Position numbers and translations under genes: made by a program. This document shows, one piece after another, positions 1-11,313 of a stretch of DNA of 64,000 nt. Every line of letters begins with the position of its first letter. The first letter of the stretch is position 1. Under the pieces are notes generated by a model. That model had not been told where the DNA came from, did no database searches, and saw only the letters and a program-made list of their open reading frames with translations. Origin of the DNA: Deltaproteobacteria bacterium (GTDB lineage: Bacteria > Myxococcota_A > Polyangia > Polyangiales > Ga0077539); NCBI GenBank assembly GCA_030694465.1, contig JAUXYJ010000103.1:91057-155056 (forward strand), written 5' to 3'.

Positions 1-1114
1 CTCCCAAGGGGCGCCATTTGCGGCCCCGATCGGACGCGCGAGGGCCTTTCGCAGGACCGTCGCCATCGGCGATCCGCAGACATCGCTTGAGCGTTTCTTC
101 ACGGTGCTCGCACACCACAAGCTCCTCGATCCTCGTGGACGCTTACGAGACGACACGCGGTTGATCGTGATGGGCGACTACTTTGACTGGGGAGCTCCGG
201 CGCAGAGACGCACCGCAGCGGCCGATGGGCTGCGCTTGCTCGCGTGGATCGCGATGCATCCTCCCGAACAGGTCATCGCGCTCACGGGCAACCACGACCT
301 CGCGCGCGTAGGCGAGCTCGCCCACTTCAGCGACGCGCTCTTTGCGCAGGCTCAGCGCGAAGCCGACCGCGCCTACCTCGACAAAGACCCCGAGCGCAAA
401 GAGGCGCTGTTTTGCGAAGACTACAACACCCCCTCATGGGAGCTAATCGCTAGGGATTTTTCAGTATTTCGTGAGACACAACGCACGTGGATTACCTCCC
501 TCTTGCGCGCCGGTCGCTTGCACCTCGCGTGGTCCGAGGGAGGCGTGCTGTTTACCCACGCCGGCGTCTCGCGCCGCGAGCTCACGGTGCTCGGCCTCGA
601 CCCCCAGGGACCGCAAGACCCTGACCGCATCGCGGATGGCCTCAACGCAGCCCTTCTCAAGGCCGTCAGGCGCTGGACCGAGGGCCCCCTGTACATCCCC
701 GACCTGCACCACCCCGGCGACCACCACGACGAGGGCGTAGGGATGCTCTATCACCGTTTTACCGTAGAGCCCGTGGCCCGACCTAAGCCCGAGAGCATGC
801 ACAGACGCACGAGTGTCTATGAGCTTCCGCGTGGTCTTTTGCAGGCAATTGGTCACGTGCGAGACAAGAAGTCTCGCGCGCTCTTGGGCCAAGACGTCTC
901 GCGCGCACACGATGGCCCTCTGCGACTCTTGCGCGTGAGTGACTCCGCGCTGCGCTACGGCCCACTCGAAGCGCCTTCGGACACAGTGCTCTCGGACGAC
1001 ACCGCGAGCGTGTGGCACCTCGACGGCGGCATGAGCCATGCTGATTTGACTGAGTATTCGCTGCTCGATGTGCACCAGCGTGCGTCCCTCACAACACTCG
1101 ATCGGGCGGATTGA
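1..1114 (+). CDS. Calcineurin-like metallophosphoesterase (5' partial; reading frame is open from window position 2)
   Basis: In-frame upstream translation ...RTVAIGDPQTSLERFFTVLAHHKLL has no stop back to nt 2. Phosphoesterase motifs: IVMGDYFDWG (motif II variant), GNHDL (motif III). Paralogous to 30427..31188. Confidence 0.6.
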   Translation, partial: SQGAPFAAPIGRARAFRRTVAIGDPQTSLERFFTVLAHHKLLDPRGRLRDDTRLIVMGDYFDWGAPAQRRTAAADGLRLLAWIAMHPPEQVIALTGNHDLARVGELAHFSDALFAQAQREADRAYLDKDPERKEALFCEDYNTPSWELIARDFSVFRETQRTWITSLLRAGRLHLAWSEGGVLFTHAGVSRRELTVLGLDPQGPQDPDRIADGLNAALLKAVRRWTEGPLYIPDLHHPGDHHDEGVGMLYHRFTVEPVARPKPESMHRRTSVYELPRGLLQAIGHVRDKKSRALLGQDVSRAHDGPLRLLRVSDSALRYGPLEAPSDTVLSDDTASVWHLDGGMSHADLTEYSLLDVHQRASLTTLDRAD

Positions 1115-1301
1115 GCGGCTCTTATTTTGAGTCACTGTTTGGTCACCCGAATCACACAAGCATCTCACCGAGCGCACACAGTGCCTTGGCTCGTGGGCTG
1201 TGACCTCTTTGTGACCAATTGAGCGCAGGCCCAACAACTCCGTGTGGGAGCACTAGATCTACGCGCTGCGAACTCTCTCACGGCGCAGGAGTGCATCTAC
1301 C

Positions 1302-2105
1302 TTGCTCGCCATCGTCAGCTTCTTCGTCGCGCACTGGCTCATTTCGGTCTTCTTTCAGACCTTCTTTCTCCATCGCTATGGGGCTCATCGCATGTTCACG
1401 ATGAGCCCTCGCATGGAGAAGGTGTTTCACGTGCTCACCTGGCTCGCGCAGGGCAGCAGCTATCTCAACCCTCGGGCGTACGCGATCTTGCATCGCGAGC
1501 ACCACGCGTTTAGCGACACGGTGCGCGATCCACATTCGCCGCATGTTTATCCCGATGTCTTCACGATGATGGGCAAGACCAAAGAGCGCTACCAGGGGCT
1601 CTTGATTGGCACGATCCGCAGTGAGCCTCGCTTCGAGGGCGGCGCGCCGTCGTGGCCTGCGCTTGACCGCATTGGGGATAGCTGGATCACGCGCATCGCG
1701 TTTGGTGTGGCCTACACCGCGGTGTACGTAAAGTTCGCTCCGCACTGGGCCTGGTTTGCGCTCTTGCCCGTGCACTACCTCATGGGCCCTGTGCACGGTG
1801 CGATCGTCAACTGGTGCGGACACAAGTACGGCTACCGCAATTTTGACGACGGCGACTGCAGCCGCAACACGCTGCCGTTTGACTTCTTGACCATGGGCGA
1901 GCTCTTTCAGAACAACCACCACAAGTTTGGAATGGCGCCTAATTTTGCAGCCCGCGCGTGGGAGATCGACCCCTCGTGGCCCATCATCAAGGCCCTGAAC
2001 TGGCTAGGCGTGATCAAGCTCTCGGACAACATCCAGGTCGCGCGCTGGAGCCCCGCCAACAAGCTCGCAGCCCACGAAATCACGAGCGAACCGCAGCGGG
2101 TGTGA
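1302..2105 (+). CDS. Membrane fatty-acid (acyl-CoA/acyl-lipid) desaturase
   Basis: Three His boxes HRYGAHR, HREHHAFSD, QNNHHKF; hydrophobic N-terminus; TTG start at 1302. Confidence 0.75.
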   Translation: MLAIVSFFVAHWLISVFFQTFFLHRYGAHRMFTMSPRMEKVFHVLTWLAQGSSYLNPRAYAILHREHHAFSDTVRDPHSPHVYPDVFTMMGKTKERYQGLLIGTIRSEPRFEGGAPSWPALDRIGDSWITRIAFGVAYTAVYVKFAPHWAWFALLPVHYLMGPVHGAIVNWCGHKYGYRNFDDGDCSRNTLPFDFLTMGELFQNNHHKFGMAPNFAARAWEIDPSWPIIKALNWLGVIKLSDNIQVARWSPANKLAAHEITSEPQRV

Positions 2106-2174
2106 GCCTCGAGAGCGCCCCCCCCCGGGATTCTCCCGATTGGCGATCGCGCACGAACCCCCTACGCTGCACGC

Positions 2175-3893
2175 ATGCGTACTTGCTCTGCACTTTGCTT
2201 CACGCTCACTCTCGCGATCACTGCCTGCTCGGATCCTCCGGCCCCCATGGCCGATCGCAACAGTGACGCATCCGGCGACGTCGCCGCCCCACCCAGCGAC
2301 GTCGCCGCTTTGGACGCCGTGATCGAAGATCGCGCGCCCCCGCCCATGCCCGTCTGCGGCAACGGCCGCGTTGAATCAGGCGAGGTCTGCGACGACGGCA
2401 ACATGCGCAGCGGCGACGGATGTCGCGATGATTGCCTGCGAATTGAGCCAGATTATGTATGCACCGTCGCGGGCATGCCATGCATGACCACCGCGGTCTG
2501 TGGCGACGGGCGCATCGGTGGACCCGAGCAGTGCGACGATCGCAACATGACCTCGGGCGACGGCTGCTCGGCCATGTGCACCCTCGAGCCTGGCTATGTG
2601 TGCCCACTGCAGGGCGTCGCGTGTCGCGCGGCCCGCTGCGGCGATGGCATCCGCGCCGACGTCGAGGCCTGTGACGACGGCAACATGGCCGCACGCGACG
2701 GATGCTCGCCCATGTGCCAACTCGAAGACGGTTTTGCCTGCACAATGCCAGGGATGCCGTGCGTCGCCATCCGCTGCGGCGACCGCATGACACAGGGCAA
2801 CGAGCAGTGTGACGACGGCAACAACCTCCCCGGGGACGGGTGCTTTGAGTGCCGCCGCGAGCCCACGTGCACCACGAGCGGCTGCACTACGCAGTGCGGT
2901 GACGGCGTGCTCTTGGCACCCGAGCAGTGCGACGACGGCAACACGCGCAACAACGACGGGTGCAGCGCGACGTGCATGACCGAGCCTGGCTACGCGTGCA
3001 TGATGATCCGCGCGGCCGAGCCCGCGACGGTGCAAGTTCCCATTGTGTATCGCGATTTTCGCGGGGCAGATCTCGCGGGCGGGCACCCGGACTTCGAGAG
3101 CTTTGGGGGCTCTGAGCGCGGCATCGTCACGGCGATGCTCACCGGCGGCAAGCCCACCTATGCGCGCGCGGCGGGCGGCTCGGCCACCACGAGCGGTCGT
3201 GCCGCGTTTGACCAATGGTACCGAGACACCGCCGGGGTCAACGTCACGCTCGTCGAGCGGCTCACGTTGACGAGGGTCTCTGCAGGGATTTATCGCTACA
3301 ACAACAGCGCGTTTTTTCCGCTGGATGGACGCGGTTGGATCGCGATGGGACGCGAGATGCCTCGCAACGACGGGCACAATTTTCACTTCACCAGCGAGCT
3401 TCGGTACTGGTTTCAGTACGCGGGCGGCGAGACGCTTGAGTTTACCGGCGACGACGACGTGTTTGTGTTTATCAACGGCCGTCTGGCCGTGGATCTCGGC
3501 GGAGTCCATGGCGCAGAGAGCGGCAGCGTCACGCTCAACCCCGCGACCGCGACGACGCTCGGGCTCACCGTGGGGCGCGTGTATGAGCTCGCGCTCTTTC
3601 AGGCCGAACGACACACCACCGAGTCGAACTATCGGCTCACGCTGGGTGGGTTTAACCTGCCGAGATCATTGTGTAATTCGGCCTGCGGAGATGGCGTGGT
3701 CACCCGCGACGAGGCCTGCGATGACGGCACCAACGACGGCCGCTACGGGGGCTGTCTGCCGGGCTGCCGCATGCGCGCGCCCTTCTGCGGCGACGGGATG
3801 CTTCAGCGTGACAGCGGCGAGCAGTGCGACGACGGCAACATGGTCAACGGCGACGGCTGCTCGACCCGCTGCGAAAACGAAACCATCGGTTAA
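2175..3893 (+). CDS. Lipoprotein with myxobacterial Cys-rich repeats (CGDG..CDDGN..GDGCS..C, DUF4215-type) flanking a fibro-slime/PA14-like domain
   Basis: Lipobox LAITAC. Eight or more repeats of the C-x-DG-x-CDDGN-x-GDGCS motif. Central VPIVYRDFRG...HPDFE segment is typical of the fibro-slime domain. Confidence 0.7.
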   Translation: MRTCSALCFTLTLAITACSDPPAPMADRNSDASGDVAAPPSDVAALDAVIEDRAPPPMPVCGNGRVESGEVCDDGNMRSGDGCRDDCLRIEPDYVCTVAGMPCMTTAVCGDGRIGGPEQCDDRNMTSGDGCSAMCTLEPGYVCPLQGVACRAARCGDGIRADVEACDDGNMAARDGCSPMCQLEDGFACTMPGMPCVAIRCGDRMTQGNEQCDDGNNLPGDGCFECRREPTCTTSGCTTQCGDGVLLAPEQCDDGNTRNNDGCSATCMTEPGYACMMIRAAEPATVQVPIVYRDFRGADLAGGHPDFESFGGSERGIVTAMLTGGKPTYARAAGGSATTSGRAAFDQWYRDTAGVNVTLVERLTLTRVSAGIYRYNNSAFFPLDGRGWIAMGREMPRNDGHNFHFTSELRYWFQYAGGETLEFTGDDDVFVFINGRLAVDLGGVHGAESGSVTLNPATATTLGLTVGRVYELALFQAERHTTESNYRLTLGGFNLPRSLCNSACGDGVVTRDEACDDGTNDGRYGGCLPGCRMRAPFCGDGMLQRDSGEQCDDGNMVNGDGCSTRCENETIG

Positions 3894-3908
3894 ATCCCTG
3901 CACATCGC

Positions 3909-5036
3909 GTGTACTCTCGCGCGATGACAACCGTGCACACCGTGGGCTCTCTCTCGCGCGCCATGGAGGCGATCGCGCCCACGCGCTTCGCCGCCTCGTG
4001 GGACAACGTGGGGCTCTTGGCCGGAGACCCTACGAGCACGATCACCTCGGTTTTGCTCTGCATTGACCTCACCCGCGAGGTCTTTGACGAGGCCTGCTCG
4101 CTCGGTGTGCAAGCGATCATTGCGTATCACCCGCCGCTGTTTAAGCCCCTCGCGCGGGTCACGCAGGGCTCGCTCATTTACGAGGCCATTCGGCACGACA
4201 TCGCGATCTATTCGCCGCACACGGCGCTCGACGCGGCCGACGGAGGGACCAACGATGTGCTCGCGGATTGCGTGGGAATCTCCAGGCACAATCGCACTTC
4301 TCTCGCCCCGCCTCCGAGCCGCGAGACCCACTGCAAGCTCGTCACGTTTGTCCCGCGCGACGCGCAAGACCGCGTGTGCGATGCGCTCTTTGCAGCGGGC
4401 GCCGGGGTGATCGGGCACTACACGCAGTGCTCGTTTCGCGTGGACGGACACGGGACTTTCTTGGGTGACCCTGCGCACACGAGCCCCGCCGTGGGCCAAG
4501 CCGGGCAGCGCGAGCGCGCCGAAGAGACCCGCGTCGAGGTGCTGGTCCCGCTGGCTCTTCGAGAGGCCATAGTGCAAGCGCTCTACGCAGCACACCCGTA
4601 CGAAACCCCTGCGTTTGACCTAGTAAAATTGCTCGACGAGCCCGAGCACAAGGGCTATGGCCGCGTGGGCTCGCTCACTGCGCCGACGCACTTTCGCGAA
4701 GTGCTGAGTGGGCTCAAGCAGGCGCTCGGCGTGAGCCATGTGTTGGTCGCCGGCCCCACCGATCGGGTGATCACGCGTGCCGCAGTGGGCGCGGGTTCGA
4801 CCGGCGAATACCTGGGCGCAGCCCTCGCGCAACGTGTGGATCTCTTTGTCTTGGGCGAGCTCAGACACCACGACGCCCTCCGCGCGGCGAGCGCTGGGCT
4901 GACCGTCGTGATGACCCTGCACTCGGTCTCAGAGCGCGCCACATTGCGCCATGTGCAATCGCGATTGCGCGCGGCCCTGCCTGAGCTGTCTCTGCACCTG
5001 AGCCAGCGCGATCACGATCCCCTGGTGATTTGCTAA
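3909..5036 (+). CDS. Nif3-family dinuclear metal-centre protein (YqfO/GTP cyclohydrolase 1 type 2 homologue)
   Basis: AASWDNVGLL and IIAYHPPLF motifs; length with central insert is typical of bacterial Nif3. Confidence 0.75.
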   Translation: MYSRAMTTVHTVGSLSRAMEAIAPTRFAASWDNVGLLAGDPTSTITSVLLCIDLTREVFDEACSLGVQAIIAYHPPLFKPLARVTQGSLIYEAIRHDIAIYSPHTALDAADGGTNDVLADCVGISRHNRTSLAPPPSRETHCKLVTFVPRDAQDRVCDALFAAGAGVIGHYTQCSFRVDGHGTFLGDPAHTSPAVGQAGQRERAEETRVEVLVPLALREAIVQALYAAHPYETPAFDLVKLLDEPEHKGYGRVGSLTAPTHFREVLSGLKQALGVSHVLVAGPTDRVITRAAVGAGSTGEYLGAALAQRVDLFVLGELRHHDALRAASAGLTVVMTLHSVSERATLRHVQSRLRAALPELSLHLSQRDHDPLVIC

Positions 5037-5078
5037 CGGTTCGCTCTTTGCACACCGCGCTCTCTTAGGACCCACCCC

Positions 5079-5879
5079 ATGAAATCCATTGCTCCTCGCC
5101 TCGCCCTCGCCGTGGTGCTTTTGCACGCTTCGCCGAGCCTCGCCCTGCGCATCGCGCCACCGCAGCCCATGCCCGTCCCAGTCACGCCGATGCCCTCGCC
5201 CAACCCGGTGCCCGTCGAGGTGATCGTCGTGCCGCCCGGCGGCGACCAGGGCCCCATGCCCTCACCCCAACCGCAGCCCGTGATGATCGAGCCCATCGTG
5301 GTGCAGCCCGCGATCACGCAGGCCCCCGTACGCCAGCCCCCGATCGCGCGCCCGATGGAGCCACCGCCCTGCCCCAGCGTGGGAGAAGAGTACATCCCGA
5401 GAGAGAGCGCCGAGCGATATCGCGAGCGATCCAACACGCTCTTTCTCGTTGGGAGCATTGGCTACGGCAGCGTCTCGGGCACCCTCCCGGTGGTGATCCC
5501 TGGAGTCACGCTGGGCGCATCGCTGCGCATTGTGCGCAGCGGTTGGCTCGTCGAGCCGAGCTTCGATGTGGTCTTCGATGGCCAGCGTCTGGGCAGCTCT
5601 GCGCCCTATCTCGAGATCAGACCGGCAGTGCGCGGAGGCTACACGGGCGCGATCACTCAGCACATCGCCCTGGGAATTCGCTTGGGATATGCGATGGACC
5701 TCGCCATCTCACGCTTTAACCCGCCGGGGCTTATTCACCAAGTCGAGCTCTCGCCGCACCTCACGATTGTCACCGACCGCGGCGTGATCCTCGAGCCCTT
5801 CTTGGCCGCCGGCGTGCAGATCGCCAACCCGATCACACCCATCGCAGTGCTCGGCCTCCGTGTGGGCACGATGCTGTAA
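5079..5879 (+). CDS. Secreted Pro-rich protein with beta-rich C-terminal half
   Basis: Signal peptide MKSIAPRLALAVVLLHASPSLA; PxP repeats; alternating hydrophobic C-terminus. Confidence 0.45.
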   Translation: MKSIAPRLALAVVLLHASPSLALRIAPPQPMPVPVTPMPSPNPVPVEVIVVPPGGDQGPMPSPQPQPVMIEPIVVQPAITQAPVRQPPIARPMEPPPCPSVGEEYIPRESAERYRERSNTLFLVGSIGYGSVSGTLPVVIPGVTLGASLRIVRSGWLVEPSFDVVFDGQRLGSSAPYLEIRPAVRGGYTGAITQHIALGIRLGYAMDLAISRFNPPGLIHQVELSPHLTIVTDRGVILEPFLAAGVQIANPITPIAVLGLRVGTML

Positions 5880-6049
5880 CAGCCTGTGAATTTGCAGGCG
5901 CATCGAGAGGCGCGAGAATCCGAAGTCGCAATCTTCGTGCGGGTGACTCGTGGCCAAGCTAGCGTGGCTGTGCGTCGGGGGATCGAGACCTCTTCGCAGC
6001 AGCGGGGCGCGAGGTGACCAGAGCCCCCCTGACATTGGGCGAGGTCACC

Positions 6050-6274
6050 ATGGATGATTGGATAGCGAAAATGCAGACGAAAGTGAAGTTGCGAGCCAAT
6101 CCTTCCTTCGACATCCGCAAACGCATCCAGCTCTCTGAGGCCGACATCTGCCCGCAGGGACGGCCCACCTGCCGATGTCTTGAGATGCGCGCGCAGATCT
6201 GGACTGCGCCTCCGAGCGGCTCGTACCTCTTCAGCGCGGCCTACTCCCATGGCGGCGACGTGAGGTTTCACTGA
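6050..6274 (+). CDS. Small hypothetical protein, stop overlaps start of downstream Cys-rich lipopeptide (TGATG)
   Basis: ORF MDDWIAKMQTKVK...; 1-nt overlap with next ORF; lower local GC; no homology recognised. Confidence 0.3.
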   Translation: MDDWIAKMQTKVKLRANPSFDIRKRIQLSEADICPQGRPTCRCLEMRAQIWTAPPSGSYLFSAAYSHGGDVRFH

Positions 6275-6561
6275 TGCTTCGCCCAGTGATTTCGCTGCTC
6301 GTTCTCGCGTGGGCCTTCGTCGGCTGCGGCGAGTCCGTGGCACCGCAGGTGTGCGATGGGCCCTGTGTCACCGACGCGGCGACGCAGCCCGATGTGGCGC
6401 CATCCCCAGCAACATGCCCCGCAGAGCGGCCTGTGGTCGGAAGCATGTGCAGCCCTTCATTGGGCGGCGAGGTCTGTTTCTACGGTCGTGAGATTACTTA
6501 CACTTGCATTTGCCGCTGCTTCGACGCTGGCTGCTTCTGGATCACCTGCGACAGCGCTTAA
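6274..6561 (+). CDS. Small secreted Cys-rich lipopeptide (95 aa, 9 Cys), copy 1
   Basis: Signal/lipobox LLVLAWAFVGC; ends CRCFDAGCFWITCDSA. Confidence 0.55.
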   Translation: MLRPVISLLVLAWAFVGCGESVAPQVCDGPCVTDAATQPDVAPSPATCPAERPVVGSMCSPSLGGEVCFYGREITYTCICRCFDAGCFWITCDSA

Positions 6562-6585
6562 CTCACCTCAGCCCATGAGCCCATC

Positions 6586-6879
6586 GTGACATTTCGCCCA
6601 GTGATTTCGCTGCTCGTTCTCGCGTGGGCGTTTGTCGGTTGCGGCGAGTCCGTGGCACCGCAGGTGTGCGATGGGCCCTGTGTCACCGACGCGGCGACGC
6701 AGCCCGATGTGGCGCCATCCCCAGCAACATGCCCCGCAGTGCGGCCTGTAGTCGGAAGCATGTGCAGCGCTTCACTAAACGGCGAGTACTGTCAATACGG
6801 TCGTCGTCCAATTATTATTAGTTGCCGTTGCCGCTGCTTCGACGCTGGCTGCTTCTGGATCAGCTGCGACAACGATTAA
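6586..6879 (+). CDS. Small secreted Cys-rich lipopeptide (97 aa), copy 2, paralogue of 6274..6561
   Basis: Residues 3-55 identical to copy 1 except one substitution (AERP vs AVRP); C-terminal 16 aa nearly identical; central 20 aa diverged. Confidence 0.55.
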   Translation: MTFRPVISLLVLAWAFVGCGESVAPQVCDGPCVTDAATQPDVAPSPATCPAVRPVVGSMCSASLNGEYCQYGRRPIIISCRCRCFDAGCFWISCDND

Positions 6880-6888
6880 CTCACCTCA

Positions 6889-6906
6889 CCCGGCGACGTC
6901 GCCGGG
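6889..6906. repeat. Perfect 18-nt palindrome CCCGGCGACGTCGCCGGG between convergent genes (hairpin; terminator-like)
   Basis: Self-complementary sequence 10 nt after the TAA of 6586..6879 and 11 nt before the stop of 6917..7225(-). The same 16-mer core recurs at 16789, 17637, 44213 and 55922. Confidence 0.45.
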
Positions 6907-6916
6907 TCGCGCGCGC

Positions 6917-7225
6917 TCAGTCCAATCGGCAGCCCTCGCGCTGTGAGATCCAGCGGGCGCGGGCTCCCCACGAGAGCACCGCTTGCGTCTCGACTTCGCG
7001 CCGCGCGTGGTCCACGCGCACCGTGCGCAGGTTGGGGTTGGCCCGGGTCCAGCGCAGGCAAAACGCCTCGTCTTTGTGCATCACAAAGACACACGAGCAC
7101 ATCTCTTTGGCCGCGTACGACGTGAGCAGCGCGAGGTCGTGGTTGTTGTACGGGCGCGGGTCGCCGGGGCAGCCCGCGAGCACGAGCGCCACCGAGGCCA
7201 GCGCTGCACGCAACAGAGTCTTCAT
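6917..7225 (-). CDS. Small lipoprotein (102 aa)
   Basis: Lipobox VLAGC; start overlaps stop of the upstream serine hydrolase gene by 4 nt (ATGA). Confidence 0.5.
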   Translation of the reverse strand: MKTLLRAALASVALVLAGCPGDPRPYNNHDLALLTSYAAKEMCSCVFVMHKDEAFCLRWTRANPNLRTVRVDHARREVETQAVLSWGARARWISQREGCRLD

Positions 7226-8376
7226 GGTGCCACCGCCATCGCCGCTGCAATAAACCCAGCAAAGTCAAAGCCCCGAACGCGATCGTCCGCGGTGCGCACG
7301 ATGACCAATTCGCGCGAGGGGATCACCGTGATCGACTGACCCCAGTGCCCGCGCGCTGCGTAGGTGTCCTCGGGGACTCCGGGCCACGGCGTCGTGACGC
7401 CCTGCTCGGGCACTGGTCGGTTGAGCCAAAACTGCCGGCCCTGCACGTCGTCGGCGTCTGCATCGAGCCTGCGAATTCGCTGCGGAGCGCTCACCTCGGT
7501 CGACGTGCGCACCCACCCCTCGGGCAGGATGCGTTGATCTCGCCAGCAGCCATCGCGCAGCAAGAAGTAGCCAAAGCGCGCGAGGTCTCGCGGCGTGGCG
7601 TACCAGTACGAAGAGCCGATGGGCGTGCCGCTCGCGTCGCGCTCGAGCGTGGCCGAGGTGATCCCGAGCGGATCAAACACATATCGCCATGGATATTCGC
7701 TGTCTTCGCCCGCTGCGCTGTACGCGCGATCGACCGCGCGCGAGAGCAAGTTTGTGTCGCCCGACGAGTACATGTACGTCGTCCCTGGGCGGTCACGAAA
7801 AGGGTGCGAGCCCACAAAGCCCGCGGCGTCGTGGTGGCCCACGCCGTAGAGCATCGCGAGGACCGAGCTCTCTTGGTTGGACGCGTTCTCGTAGGTCTCG
7901 CGCCAATCAAGACCGGTCGCGAACTCCATCGGGTGCTGCACCGTGAGCGCGCACATGTCCATGCGCAGATAGGGCATCCAGCGGCAGAGCGAATCGCTGA
8001 GATTGAGGTAGCCGCGACCGACCGCGATGCCTGTTAAAACATTGGTCAAGCTCTTGGTCATCGACCAGGTGTAGTGCGGCTGCTCGGCGGTCCATGTGCG
8101 CCCATAGCGCTCGTACACAAGCACGCCGCGATGGAGAATAAGCACCGAGTCCGTGCGCACGCCCAAGCGCTGGTCGTCTTCGCCCGTGAGCGTAAACACA
8201 CGCTGCTCGAGCGCTGCGATTTCGGTCGCCCGCGCGGCGCGGGTGGTCTCAATCGCGGACTCCCACTGCGCGTCGGGATAGCGCACGCCCGCAGGGCACG
8301 ACGACTGCGCGAGGGCGCTCGTGGGAGAGAGCGCGAGGGTCGCAATTGCTAGGTAAATTCCAGCTAAAATTCTCAT
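7222..8376 (-). CDS. Beta-lactamase/penicillin-binding-fold serine hydrolase, secreted
   Basis: Signal peptide; SxxK motif SMTKS; YSSG-like motif; class C/esterase-like length. Confidence 0.7.
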   Translation of the reverse strand: MRILAGIYLAIATLALSPTSALAQSSCPAGVRYPDAQWESAIETTRAARATEIAALEQRVFTLTGEDDQRLGVRTDSVLILHRGVLVYERYGRTWTAEQPHYTWSMTKSLTNVLTGIAVGRGYLNLSDSLCRWMPYLRMDMCALTVQHPMEFATGLDWRETYENASNQESSVLAMLYGVGHHDAAGFVGSHPFRDRPGTTYMYSSGDTNLLSRAVDRAYSAAGEDSEYPWRYVFDPLGITSATLERDASGTPIGSSYWYATPRDLARFGYFLLRDGCWRDQRILPEGWVRTSTEVSAPQRIRRLDADADDVQGRQFWLNRPVPEQGVTTPWPGVPEDTYAARGHWGQSITVIPSRELVIVRTADDRVRGFDFAGFIAAAMAVAP

Positions 8377-8933
8377 TCGAACACTCCCTGCATCAGCGGA
8401 ACCTGCAGCCCCAACGGGATGCTCGTGCAGGTCACCTGCGACAGCGACATGCGGGCCTCGAGCGATTGTGAGCGCACGCTGCCGTCGTCAAACCACCGCG
8501 CCGTGGGGCTCGTCGTGTGTGTGCGTGCAACAGTGCGCGTGGGCGTGGGCGCTCTGCGTGTGAGCTGCATCAAGAGCGTCGCGCCGGCGGGCAAAAGCAC
8601 AGACTCGGCGAGCGTAAAGAGCGCAAAGTTTCCGATGTTTCCGATCCAGACGCCTGAGAGCGCGCCCACGGCCATCGCGCCCCAGTGCAACGGAAGCGTC
8701 GCGACCACCGCGGGCCACAAGCGGTACGCGCCGGGCTCGTACTGGTTGGTCACAAAGCTCATCAAGCCCGAGACCGCCATCGGTGGCCCCAGCCCCATCA
8801 CCAAGAGCGCCGGGAGCCCTCCGCCCAAAAGATCAGGCGAAACCCTCGTCAACGCGGTCCCAAGGCCCACGGCAGCGGGCACCGTGATCACCGTCGCGGC
8901 CACCCCAGCGACCACACCGTCAAACACGGCCAT
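8373..8933 (-). CDS. Integral membrane protein (unknown function), first gene of a 3-gene minus-strand operon
   Basis: Multiple hydrophobic helices. Stop overlaps the hydrolase start (ATGA). The annotated ORF extends to 9287 but would overlap the cstA start; internal Met at 8933 chosen, and the real N-terminus may be longer. Confidence 0.4.
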   Translation of the reverse strand: MAVFDGVVAGVAATVITVPAAVGLGTALTRVSPDLLGGGLPALLVMGLGPPMAVSGLMSFVTNQYEPGAYRLWPAVVATLPLHWGAMAVGALSGVWIGNIGNFALFTLAESVLLPAGATLLMQLTRRAPTPTRTVARTHTTSPTARWFDDGSVRSQSLEARMSLSQVTCTSIPLGLQVPLMQGVFE

Positions 8934-9181
8934 CGCGCGTGGCGACCACCCGGGGCTCTCTGCGGTCTCTCGCGCGGTGAGCGACACGCGCGGATCCGAT
9001 GCGGGCGGTGGCGGCGCGATCACCTCGGCCGACGCCGTAGTGCTCGCACTCAGCGTCGCGGCCACCACCCCACACGCAAGCGCTCTTGTGACAGAGCTCC
9101 CAATGAATCTGTGATGCCAATGCACGCGCGCATCGAAGCACAGAGACCCGCCACGCGTCGAGATCGCGCACAAACTCTCAC

Positions 9182-9198
9182 ACGAATTTGCTGCAAAT
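9182..9198. promoter_or_regulatory. 17-bp palindrome GAATTTGC-T-GCAAATTC in cstA upstream region (candidate operator)
   Basis: Perfect 8-bp inverted repeat about 40 bp upstream of the cstA ATG in a divergent intergenic region. Confidence 0.3.
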
Positions 9199-9237
9199 TC
9201 ACCGCGCGAACTCACGCTACAGTCGCACGCAACCCCT

Positions 9238-11313
9238 ATGGTCTCTGCCGCCCCCGTGATGATCGGTGCGCTCTGTGTGCTCACCATCGCGTACCGATAT
9301 TATGCTGCGTTTATCGCGGCCAAAGTGCTCGTGCTCGACGGCGACGCGGTCACGCCCGCGCACCGGTTGAGCGACGGGCAAAACTTTGTCCCGACCAACA
9401 AGTGGGTGCTCTTTGGGCATCACTTTGCGGCCATCTCAGGATCGGGCCCGCTCATCGGCCCTACGCTCGCGGCGCAGTTTGGCTTTGCGCCGGGTTTTCT
9501 CTGGATTCTTGCAGGGGTTGTGCTCGCGGGCGCGGTGCACGATTTTGTGATCTTAGTCGCGAGTACACGCCGCGACGGGCGCTCTCTCGCAGAGCTCGCG
9601 CGCGAAGAGCTCGGCCCGGTCCCAGGGCTCGTCGCCATGATCGCCATCTTGACCATCGTGATCATCGCGATCGCGGGCCTCGGGATCGTGGTCGTGGGCG
9701 CCCTCGCCGAGTCCGCGTGGGGCACGTTTACCGTGGGCGCGAGCGTACCGATCGCGTTGGTCATGGGCGTGTGGGCCTACAAGATCCGCAAGGGCGCGAT
9801 TGTCGAGAGCACGATCTTTGGCATCATCGCCCTGCTCGTCGCGCTCGTCGTCGGAAAACACGTCCAAGACGGCCCCCTCGGCGCGCACTTTCGCTTTGAT
9901 CGACAGACCATCACCTACGCCATCGCGGCCTACGGTTTTTTCGCGAGCGTGCTGCCCGTATGGCTCTTGCTCTGCCCGCGAGATTATCTCTCGAGCTACC
10001 TCAAGATCGGCACGATCGCGCTGCTCGTCGTGGGGGTGATCGTGGTCAACCCGACGATCCAAGCGCCCATGATTTCGCAGTGGGTCCATGGAGGCGGGCC
10101 CATTGTGAAAGGCCCGCTGTTTCCGTTTGTGTTTGTGACCATCGCGTGCGGCGCGATCTCGGGATTTCATGGGCTGGTCTCGTCGGGGACCACGCCCAAA
10201 ATGATCTCGAACGAGCGTGACGCGCGCACCATCGGCTACGGCGCGATGCTCATGGAGGGCGTCGTCGGGCTCACCGCCCTCGTGGCGGCGACGTCGCTGC
10301 CCGTCAATGACTACCTCGCGATCAACACCGACCCGCTCGTGCCCATCGTCGCGACGAGCGCACATGGCCCCGGGTTTGTCTCAGACCGCGCGGCGCTCAC
10401 ACGCGTTGCGAGTGCTTTTTCGACCGCAGATCGACGCACCCTCGCCCTCACGGCCACCGACGCAGCGTCCCTCGGCGCGCTCGCGCAGCGACGTGTTCCG
10501 CTCTCGCGCGTGCTGTCGCTCAGCAACGGCTCGCTCGCCGCCGCGGGCTACCACGTCGACCCGCGCGAGCAAGACCCCACGAGCTTGTCCAACGAAGACT
10601 TCGCGCGCCTCGGGGTCTCGGTCACAGACCTCCCCGCCCTCGCCGCGAGCACGCACGAGCGCATCGCCGCGCGCACCGGCGGAGGCGTCTCACTCGCCGT
10701 CGGAATGGCGAGAATATTTGCAGGGCTCCCCTTCATCCGTGGCGCCAAGAACCTGCTCGCGTACTGGTACCACTTTGCCATCATGTTCGAGGCCCTGTTT
10801 ATCCTCACGACGATTGACACAGGCACCCGCGTGGGGCGCTTTCTCGTGCAAGAGTTCTTGGGCAAGCTCTGGGCACCACTGGGCCGTTCGGACAGCGTAT
10901 TTGCAGGCGCGCTCGCGACCGCCCTCGTCGTCGGAGGCTGGACCACCTTCTTGCTCACCGGCAGCGTGCAGACCATCTGGCCCATGTTTGGCATCGCCAA
11001 CCAGCTCTTGGCCGTCGTCGGGCTCACCGTCGGGACCACCGTGATTCTGCGCAAATCAGGCCACCGATACGCGTGGGTCACCGGGTTGCCCTTGCTCTTT
11101 GTCGGCACCACCACGGTCACCGCGGGCCTGCAGGGGATCCGCGACATCTACCTCCCGCTCACGCGCCGCGCTGACCCCGCCCTGCGCTTTCAGGGCTGGG
11201 TCGACACGGTGTTTACCTCGGTGCTCTTGCTCTGCGTCGCGATCATCGTGGGCTACGCCATCCCGACCTGGCTCAAGATCATCCGCACCGCGCGCAAGCC
11301 CGCGACCTCGTAG
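9238..11313 (+). CDS. cstA: Carbon starvation protein A (peptide/pyruvate transporter family)
   Basis: N-terminal region FGHHFAAISGSGPLIGP characteristic of CstA; polytopic membrane profile; 691 aa. Confidence 0.85.
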   Translation: MVSAAPVMIGALCVLTIAYRYYAAFIAAKVLVLDGDAVTPAHRLSDGQNFVPTNKWVLFGHHFAAISGSGPLIGPTLAAQFGFAPGFLWILAGVVLAGAVHDFVILVASTRRDGRSLAELAREELGPVPGLVAMIAILTIVIIAIAGLGIVVVGALAESAWGTFTVGASVPIALVMGVWAYKIRKGAIVESTIFGIIALLVALVVGKHVQDGPLGAHFRFDRQTITYAIAAYGFFASVLPVWLLLCPRDYLSSYLKIGTIALLVVGVIVVNPTIQAPMISQWVHGGGPIVKGPLFPFVFVTIACGAISGFHGLVSSGTTPKMISNERDARTIGYGAMLMEGVVGLTALVAATSLPVNDYLAINTDPLVPIVATSAHGPGFVSDRAALTRVASAFSTADRRTLALTATDAASLGALAQRRVPLSRVLSLSNGSLAAAGYHVDPREQDPTSLSNEDFARLGVSVTDLPALAASTHERIAARTGGGVSLAVGMARIFAGLPFIRGAKNLLAYWYHFAIMFEALFILTTIDTGTRVGRFLVQEFLGKLWAPLGRSDSVFAGALATALVVGGWTTFLLTGSVQTIWPMFGIANQLLAVVGLTVGTTVILRKSGHRYAWVTGLPLLFVGTTTVTAGLQGIRDIYLPLTRRADPALRFQGWVDTVFTSVLLLCVAIIVGYAIPTWLKIIRTARKPATS

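Follow-up and report, generated by a model that had tools for sequence, protein, structure and literature searches.

What are the two short, cysteine-rich genes that stand side by side in a Myxococcota genome, nearly identical along most of their length and sharply different in one internal patch? They lie in a 64,000-nt stretch of contig JAUXYJ010000103.1 (positions 91,057–155,056; assembly GCA_030694465.1), here called the window, from a metagenome-assembled genome (MAG) named "Deltaproteobacteria bacterium", and NCBI annotates both as hypothetical proteins. An earlier reading of the sequence alone, referred to below as the original prediction, took them for a diversifying small secreted peptide resembling a toxin, bacteriocin or signal. 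We propose that they are the remains of a cassette in which the gene of a subtilisin-like (S8) protease, or subtilase, was followed by that of a small lipoprotein, and which has been orphaned by loss of the protease. We put the probability of this structural and genomic description at about 0.85. That the lipoproteins may act as inhibitor- or immunity-like, lipid-anchored partners of a protease is a more tentative proposal, at roughly 0.35–0.4.

Both genes are present as adjacent open reading frames (ORFs) for exported proteins of 95 and 97 amino acids, at the coordinates originally predicted (Table 1), and a repeat finder recovered their near-identical flanks as two direct repeats in register: 6278–6489/6593–6804 (93% identical, spacing 315 nt) and 6485–6573/6803–6891 (84% identical, spacing 318 nt). 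The spacings differ by one codon because copy 2 carries an extra CCA. Across codons 4–61 the copies show five differences, four synonymous and one nonsynonymous (E/V); the final 16 codons contain three single-nucleotide nonsynonymous changes (T/S, S/N and A/D), and the first 13 nt 3′ of the stop codon are identical. Divergence is concentrated between these regions: 23 of the 31 differing alignment columns fall inside one 60-column window, against 8 in the 236 columns elsewhere, a clustering matched by none of 100,000 permutations (P<1e-5).

Table 1. Coordinates of the features of the lipoprotein locus within the window.
Feature	Position	Strand	Details
3′ remnant of subtilisin-like (S8) protease gene (proposed)	6014..6274	+	final 74–86 codons, C-terminal beta-rich domain
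Copy 1, 95-aa prolipoprotein MDP3278952.1 (predicted)	6274..6561	+	ATG start; ORF, lipobox, homologues P0003/P0006
Hypervariable patch, copy 1	6454..6509	+	residues P61–I79; loops between Cys59, Cys68 and Cys78
Spacer between copies	6562..6585	+	alignment of six junctions
Copy 2, 97-aa prolipoprotein MDP3278953.1 (predicted)	6586..6879	+	GTG start, without clear Shine–Dalgarno (SD) sequence
Hypervariable patch, copy 2	6769..6827	+	residues A62–R81; contains AT-rich rare-codon run
GC-rich hairpin CCCGGCGACGTCGCCGGG	6889..6906	.	RNA fold −17 kcal/mol, z = −1.35

The features of the encoded proteins point to the cell envelope. A PROSITE-type lipobox rule (K/R in the n-region, uncharged h-region, [LIVMFWSTAG]2-[LIVMFYSTAGCQ]-[AGS]-C, Cys at position 15–35) is satisfied by both copies and by their homologues P0003 and P0006, with the Cys at position 18 or 19; the signal peptides of the two copies have an Arg in the n-region, an uncharged h-region and an AFVG-C junction (Cys18 of copy 1 at 6325–6327). 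The signal peptide and lipobox suspected in the original prediction are accordingly present in both copies, and the products are predicted to be lipid-anchored lipoproteins rather than the free lipopeptides or diffusible peptides that it envisaged. The mature proteins, of 78 and 79 residues, contain ten further Cys and consist of a ~30-residue Pro/Asp/Ala-rich linker with a CDGPC motif followed by a 48-residue C-terminal domain with eight Cys, spaced C-x10-C-x8-C-x9/10-C-x-C-x-C-x4-C-x4-C. AlphaFold2 on the four-sequence family alignment gave a weak model (pLDDT 57) with four beta-strands in the C-terminal 35 residues and a disordered linker (pLDDT <50, mature residues 1–25); in this low-confidence model, the patch occupies the first beta-hairpin and the beginning of strand 3.

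Among ~15 billion proteins, covered by searching 5.8 billion clusters through a word index and running HMMER in full over 1.84 billion representatives, only two full homologues were found beyond the two copies: P0003, from Logan DRR668358 (contig L001), and P0006, from JGI 3300079869 (contig L002). Peptide-profile scans of GTDB genomes, JGI metagenome contigs and IMG/VR returned no further homologue, and neither tblastn nor a Cys-motif scan found another family member in the window. On these searches, the family is a very rare, lineage-restricted orphan of a Myxococcota lineage. Judged by the neighbouring NIF3 gene, MAGs of Myxococcales and Polyangiaceae are the closest genomes (48–53% identical), and they have no flanking genes in common with the window. 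All 11 Cys are kept in 4/4 family proteins, and the C-terminal C-x-C-R-C-..-G-C-F-W-..-C-D is almost invariant among them. Between organisms, dN/dS is 0.2–0.4 in the 5′ part and 0.05–0.2 in the tail, values that indicate purifying selection, and the linker is the least conserved part and carries indels. The conserved Cys and the low between-organism dN/dS identify these as real, constrained coding genes; GC3 was not discriminating as a coding test here (genome reference GC3 0.76).

The same comparisons bear on whether the tandem could be an artefact, that is, two strain variants joined by the assembler, or ORFs that are not genes. The source is a metagenome-assembled genome, and the Logan assembly of the same run stops at the repeat. 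An independent Logan contig (L012, run SRR13727538) is 100% identical to window positions 1–6307 and ends 30 nt into the repeat, which is where a k-mer assembler is expected to stop at a true repeat. Against an artefact, a unique 24-nt spacer separates the copies, their 5′ junctions differ, the genes lie on a 313-kb contig, a tandem second copy also occurs in JGI contig L002 from a separate sample, and protein-level conservation with dN/dS <1 extends across four sequences from three other samples. An assembly origin of the tandem is unlikely, and we regard the artefact explanation as a whole as very improbable.

Turning to the origin of the locus, the decisive element is the ORF upstream of copy 1. 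It had been described as a third small Cys-containing ORF, translationally coupled through TGATG. The ORF and the overlap exist, the TGA stop of the one overlapping the ATG of copy 1, but by its alignments the ORF is a subtilase pseudogene fragment and not an independent peptide. Possible starts are GTG 6014, ATG 6050 (with GAGG 7 nt upstream) and ATG 6071, the last of which NCBI uses to call a 67-aa hypothetical protein (MDP3278951.1). The 86-codon ORF from 6014 to 6274 matches the C-terminus of the ORF preceding P0006 in L002 with 61% identity over 94 aa, and P0007 of contig L003, itself found by a search with the ORF preceding P0006, with 53% identity. These related sequences of L002 and L003 align to the C-terminal ~170 aa of Peptidase_S8 proteins in two further contigs, L013 and L014, which were found by a metagenome scan with a profile of subtilase-tail sequences; the L013 (760-aa) and L014 (735-aa) proteins match PF00082 with E values of 2e-25 and 5e-19, respectively. 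No S8 catalytic sequence is present anywhere in the window, where only the post-catalytic C-terminal domain is kept. Since the remnant aligns to the S8 C-terminal domain and the window holds no catalytic part, the protease gene has been lost except for its last 74–86 codons. A practical consequence is a correction of the annotation: the upstream "hypothetical" small Cys ORF is a subtilase pseudogene fragment. The position where the body of the subtilase would be expected is occupied by a 266-aa ORF (5079–5879, + strand) whose product has a signal peptide and a Pro-rich segment and is rich in Gly and Val in its C-terminal half; this ORF has no family match and is also present in the independent Logan contig.

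An S8 gene followed on the same strand by a small-lipoprotein gene was found in four other contigs: L013 and L014, in which the protease gene is intact, L003, in which it is frameshifted, and L002, in which it is cut at the 5′ end. The two genes overlap through TGATG in L002 and L003, as in the window, and are separated by 13–80 nt in L013 and L014. In L013, the subtilase has a lipobox (AFGC), and ~80 nt after it an ORF starts with MRTLWLRSAFFPIALWAIGC (lipobox AIGC, DVPPPTDVAPP linker) before the contig ends. The L014 subtilase has a near-lipobox, and 13 nt beyond its gene begins that of a lipoprotein of 168 aa containing ten Cys. Given the lipobox and near-lipobox of these enzymes, protease and partner would share a compartment. 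In L003, P0007 (177 aa) is followed by TGATG and a signal-peptide start, MKFAVILLA..., at which point the contig ends. Positions 4237–5900 of this contig hold one subtilase in two frames, an S8 call at 4237–5313 (358 aa) and an ORF at 5367–5900 (177 aa), the second frame holding the serine motif GQSSFATAV ahead of the called start; the "177-aa protein" is therefore an artefact of a frameshift that splits the subtilase gene. Where the L013 and L014 enzymes have their catalytic Asp, the aligned residue of L003 is Glu. Together with the frameshift, this could reflect a pseudo-protease, a sequencing error or a misalignment. Contig L003 comes from the same run as the window and may be a further, more complete locus from the window's own genome or one close to it.

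Traces of the subtilase gene also accompany the remaining family members. In L002, where the two copies have identical 5′ ends and the contig runs into the second, 35 nt that clearly duplicate the subtilase tail stand before this second copy; in L001, the lone copy encoding P0003 is preceded by a 14-codon trace of the tail. Contig L001 also carries an RHS-repeat-associated core ORF (1–252, − strand; TIGR03696, E 1e-15), resembling an orphan Rhs C-terminal fragment, 1.6 kb from P0003 and on the opposite strand. Within the window, the spacer between the copies resembles the subtilase tail as well (CCCATG-7nt-CGTGA) and is ~11 nt short. Tentatively, it may be a degenerate tail copy in which a deletion of ~11 nt took the native SD and ATG of copy 2. 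At positions where the outgroups P0003 and P0006 polarise the changes, copy 2 is, on these alignments, the derived copy: TCIC and CDSA occur in copy 1 and both outgroups, and SCRC and CDND in copy 2.

What, then, happened in the patch? Over codons 62–81, nine codons are replaced (18 nt changes), one codon (CCA) is extra, and one synonymous Leu codon is doubly changed. The original prediction had called the two patches completely different; in fact, they are ~50% identical, with 11 of ~20 aligned residues kept, including both Cys, and 10 of these 11 encoded by the identical codon. Its AT-rich stretch in copy 2 is real: the string ccaattattattag lies at 6808–6821, with the run CCA ATT ATT ATT AGT, and draws on codons that are rare in this genome (relative usage ATT 0.21, AGT 0.05, CTA 0.03). 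By hand count, the patch substitutions comprise 8 transitions and 12 transversions, and all 12 substitution types are present. Three codons are altered at all three positions, and replaced codons average 2 nt changes each. The patch loops vary in sequence and length across all four family members. No second copy of either patch occurs within 3 mismatches in the window, which provides no local conversion donor. Mutagenesis by a diversity-generating retroelement (DGR) was ruled out by the substitution spectrum: variable and template repeats would differ only at template adenines, and just 3/20 changes (copy 1 as template) or 7/20 (copy 2 as template) are at adenines; both putative DGR repeats are coding genes, and no search aimed at a reverse transcriptase was made in the window.

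The pattern of change differs between patch and flanks in replacement and not in silent change. Amino-acid replacement affects 9/20 patch codons (45%) against 2/56 in the flanks (4%), and conserved codons are silently changed in 1/11 cases (9%) against 4/54 (7%). In a McDonald–Kreitman-style table, the patch has 9 replaced and 1 silently changed codon and the flanks 2 and 4 (Fisher one-sided P=0.036; P=0.017 with the C-terminal tail included). The flanks have a Nei–Gojobori dS of 0.09 and dN of 0.016 between copies; at this flank dS, the neutral expectation for the patch is ~4 (4.2) nonsynonymous differences, and ~16 were seen plus an indel (Poisson P ~1e-5). Taken alone, the patch shows 4 silent changes over 13.5 silent sites, giving a dS of 0.38 and a dN/dS of ~1.2, in which the numbers are small and 2 of the 4 silent changes arise from path averaging in multi-hit codons. 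For the diversifying, non-neutral duplication originally proposed, the concentration of change and the excess of replacement hold up; the patch-only dN/dS, at ~1.2, falls short of it.

The age of the patch can be judged from its conserved codons. An older patch between gene-converted flanks would predict many silent differences at conserved patch residues; between organisms, silent change at conserved codons reaches 38–68%. Because 10 of the 11 conserved patch codons are identical between the copies, including the rare TCA, TGT, GGT, CGT and ATT, the patch appears to be no older than the flanks. Additionally, the patch of copy 1 resembles that of copy 2 far more than either resembles the patch of P0003 or P0006. 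Stable ancient paralogues, which would have counted against ongoing diversification, were thus not seen; by these comparisons the two patches are each other's closest relatives.

These data also bear on the possibility that the copies are non-adaptive leftovers, their flanks alike through conversion or recent duplication and the patch simply the least constrained loop, in which differences build up or persist because divergence blocks conversion. Such an account would explain why the patch is also least conserved between organisms, with differing lengths, why the patch-only dN/dS is near neutral, and why copy 2, without a good start or SD, bears every polarisable derived state; the protease is deleted, and the identical 5′ ends of the L002 copies fit concerted evolution. 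It does not readily explain why both ORFs are intact with all 11 Cys, or why the replaced codons average 2 nt changes while 10/11 conserved patch codons, rare ones among them, are identical. Uniform relaxation of copy 2 would place ~22% of the nonsynonymous changes in the patch, in proportion to its 22% of sites, and is rejected because 16/21 fall there. We regard this explanation as somewhat unlikely. The divergence is more likely to stem from accelerated amino-acid change in a contact loop, and the pattern suggests diversifying change, or positive selection, acting on the patch.

Together, these observations allow a scenario for the orphaned cassette to be drawn. The ancestral unit would have comprised a gene for a membrane-anchored or exported S8 protease, followed by the small-lipoprotein gene; in the window, the protease gene has been lost save for its 3′ end and the partner gene has been tandemly duplicated. 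The products, judging by their sequence features, would be exported by Sec, lipidated at Cys18/19 and stabilized by up to five disulfides, yielding a small beta-hairpin domain on a ~30-residue Pro-rich tether, with the variable loops, perhaps with the C-terminal tail, forming the contact surface for a protease. The lipoprotein would be a tight-binding partner, likeliest a cognate inhibitor or "immunity" protein that guards the producer's own envelope, and the two copies could then provide two binding specificities. The near-identity of the flanks would stem from recent duplication or gene conversion, and the divergence of the patch would reflect a surplus of substitutions that change amino acids and are often multi-nucleotide. 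Among the functions considered, that of an inhibitor or immunity protein best fits the combination of a hypervariable loop set in a rigid disulfide frame, a lipobox protease predicted to share the compartment, and a partner that was kept and multiplied after the protease was lost.

Several points weigh against this proposal. The cognate protease is absent from the locus, and the copies are possibly leftovers. Copy 2, given its GTG start and missing SD, may be weakly translated and poorly expressed. The Cys-rich part of the L013 downstream lipoprotein lies beyond the contig end, and family membership of the L014 downstream lipoprotein is unsupported (hhalign probability 0.6%). No sequence or fold match to a known inhibitor, chaperone or immunity family was obtained: scans of the peptides and the upstream ORF against Pfam, NCBIfam, PADLOC and PHROGs gave nothing significant, the copies have no Pfam or NCBIfam match at E≤1, PDB sequence searches with the peptide and subtilase-tail profiles gave chance matches only (E≥0.3), and Foldseek with the weak model gave no match at E≤0.001. 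The structure models, with pLDDT values of 57 and 48, are of low confidence, and four full sequences are too few for site models or protease covariation. Finally, the patch-only dS of 0.38 against 0.09 in the flanks is compatible with an older patch between gene-converted flanks, and a gene-conversion mosaic over an unconstrained loop is a possible alternative source of the divergence.

The lipoproteins could instead be precursors, in which the adjacent subtilase cuts the linker and frees the ~48-residue disulfide-rich domain as a diffusible signal, bacteriocin or toxin whose loops give target specificity, the conserved N-terminal part serving as leader. The layout, in which the N-terminal part and the Cys frame are conserved and the core varies, resembles that of conopeptide precursors and of precursors of ribosomally synthesized and post-translationally modified peptides (RiPPs). 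In conopeptide superfamilies, the signal and N-terminal region is conserved and the mature region hypervariable, with fixed Cys codons and multi-nucleotide, transversion-rich changes; conopeptides are eukaryotic venom peptides secreted in free form, whereas the copies are bacterial, predicted to be lipid-anchored and associated with a protease. A dedicated S8 protease beside the precursor gene would be typical of peptide maturation, and the predicted disorder of the linker would suit cleavage there, much as SitA lipoproteins are thought to be freed from their anchor by proteolysis in a disordered post-lipobox region (PMC8546572). On the other side, the "leader" is an ordinary Sec/signal peptidase II (SPII) signal, the protease is missing at the window locus, and the linker is the least conserved part, with indels and no conserved cleavage motif evident. 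Scans with Pfam, NCBIfam and PADLOC found no genes near the copies for the modification or export of, or immunity to, a bacteriocin or RiPP. A RiPP or bacteriocin precursor is not supported, the signal being of the SPII type rather than a RiPP leader and the only linked protease being the S8 enzyme of the other loci. We therefore consider the precursor explanation unlikely. The stand-alone toxin, bacteriocin or signal of the original prediction likewise lacks such genes nearby, and the subtilase-then-lipoprotein context favours a partner of the protease over a free bacteriocin or signal peptide, which is the less likely of the two.

As a protease partner, the lipoprotein would have parallels among described systems. 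The Aeromonas sobria subtilase ASP is served by ORF2, encoded just downstream, whose C-terminal region lies at the catalytic site and which acts as a temporary inhibitor and chaperone (PMC5638518). In M. xanthus, secretion of the subtilisin-like PopC is inhibited by PopD, with which it forms a complex (PMC6434023). As in ASP/ORF2 and PopC/PopD, a small partner gene lies immediately downstream of an S8 subtilase gene in one transcription unit, an arrangement that L002, L003, L013 and L014 share and of which the window keeps a remnant. In contrast to those systems, with which no sequence similarity is detectable, the partner here is a predicted lipoprotein with 10 Cys, and in the window it is tandemly duplicated and persists without the protease. 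In protein protease inhibitors, a fixed disulfide scaffold bearing hypervariable contact loops is reportedly a classical feature, as Laskowski and, in 1987, Hill and Hastie are said to have described. Like Kazal-type standard-mechanism inhibitors, the copies combine a small Cys scaffold, tandem duplication and change concentrated in one loop. Unlike them, they are predicted to be lipid-anchored, show no Pfam or PDB match and have no identified reactive site; the absence of a sequence or fold match also places them outside the known protease-inhibitor families (Kazal, SSI, I9, ecotin and others).

Resemblance extends to orphan immunity modules of Rhs, contact-dependent inhibition (CDI) and type VI secretion system (T6SS) loci, with which the locus shares a 3′ fragment of the upstream gene before a small gene (in the window, L002 and L001), tandem arrays and, for the L001 homologue, proximity to an Rhs-core fragment. 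Here, unlike in those modules, the upstream gene encodes a subtilase instead of a recognised toxin, the retained C-terminus of its product is conserved and not polymorphic, and no delivery system is linked. SitA toxins are Myxococcota lipoproteins in which a ~375-aa escort domain after the lipobox is followed by a polymorphic C-terminal nuclease, with sitI downstream in the operon (PMC8546572). The copies share with SitA the combination of polymorphism, a lipobox and a predicted disordered post-lipobox region (PMC8546572); their mature proteins of only 78–79 aa, the lack of a toxin-domain match and the convergent orientation of the next downstream gene (6917–7225, − strand) set them apart from it. 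An assignment to the entericidin type was likewise rejected, with no Pfam match and tandem small lipoproteins as the sole resemblance. The conserved-frame, variable-loop duplication pattern is itself familiar, and the family is new within a familiar kind.

The wider neighbourhood comprises a NIF3 protein, the 266-aa exported protein, a beta-lactamase-family hydrolase and a small lipoprotein. Converging on the lipoprotein locus are three genes with 4-nt stop/start overlaps (6917–9287, − strand), whose products are a membrane-like protein of 304 aa, a signal-peptide-bearing serine hydrolase of the beta-lactamase family (384 aa; PF00144, E 4e-27) and a lipoprotein of 102 aa. The gene for the last (6917–7225), with 4 further Cys in its product, is convergent with copy 2. 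Between the two convergent ends lies the hairpin CCCGGCGACGTCGCCGGG, which is terminator-like without a T run and was not called by the terminator scan. It forms part of a 29-nt palindromic element (6887–6915) that occurs once in the window and is found again, in inverted orientation and with a single mismatch, behind an 80-aa gene at L003 1866–1894; this element may be a shared terminator or a repetitive extragenic palindromic (REP)-like element, and its recurrence hints that L003 stems from the window's genome or a close one. Promoter and terminator scans were otherwise uninformative, one promoter-like match inside the AT-rich patch being probably spurious, and no Rfam family was found in 5000–8000. 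Further upstream (2175–3893, + strand), a 572-aa predicted lipoprotein contains seven DUF4215 units, a myxobacterial Cys-rich repeat, flanking a PA14 domain, a large surface-protein layout assembled from the same building blocks as the myxobacterial TraA receptor; internal repeats also show in its DNA.

If the partner and inhibitor reading is correct, these proteins would form a bacterial family not described before, of protease-binding mini-proteins that are rich in disulfides, anchored by lipid and naturally variable in their contact loop, and the two copies, with near-identical scaffolds and different loops, would come close to a natural loop-swap experiment. A bolder extension, which we regard as improbable, is that the cassettes are an inter-bacterial "weapon plus immunity" system, in which an envelope-anchored subtilase attacks neighbours and the lipid-anchored, disulfide-rich mini-inhibitor shields kin, while cells without the protease keep and multiply orphan inhibitors whose loops track the proteases of rivals; the locus would then be an immunity array against a proteolytic, and not a nuclease or lytic, toxin. 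Returning to the protease-partner reading, the family, if confirmed in that role, would bear on the control of, and resistance to, envelope proteases in predatory and social Myxococcota, and its fold could be used as a compact binding scaffold.

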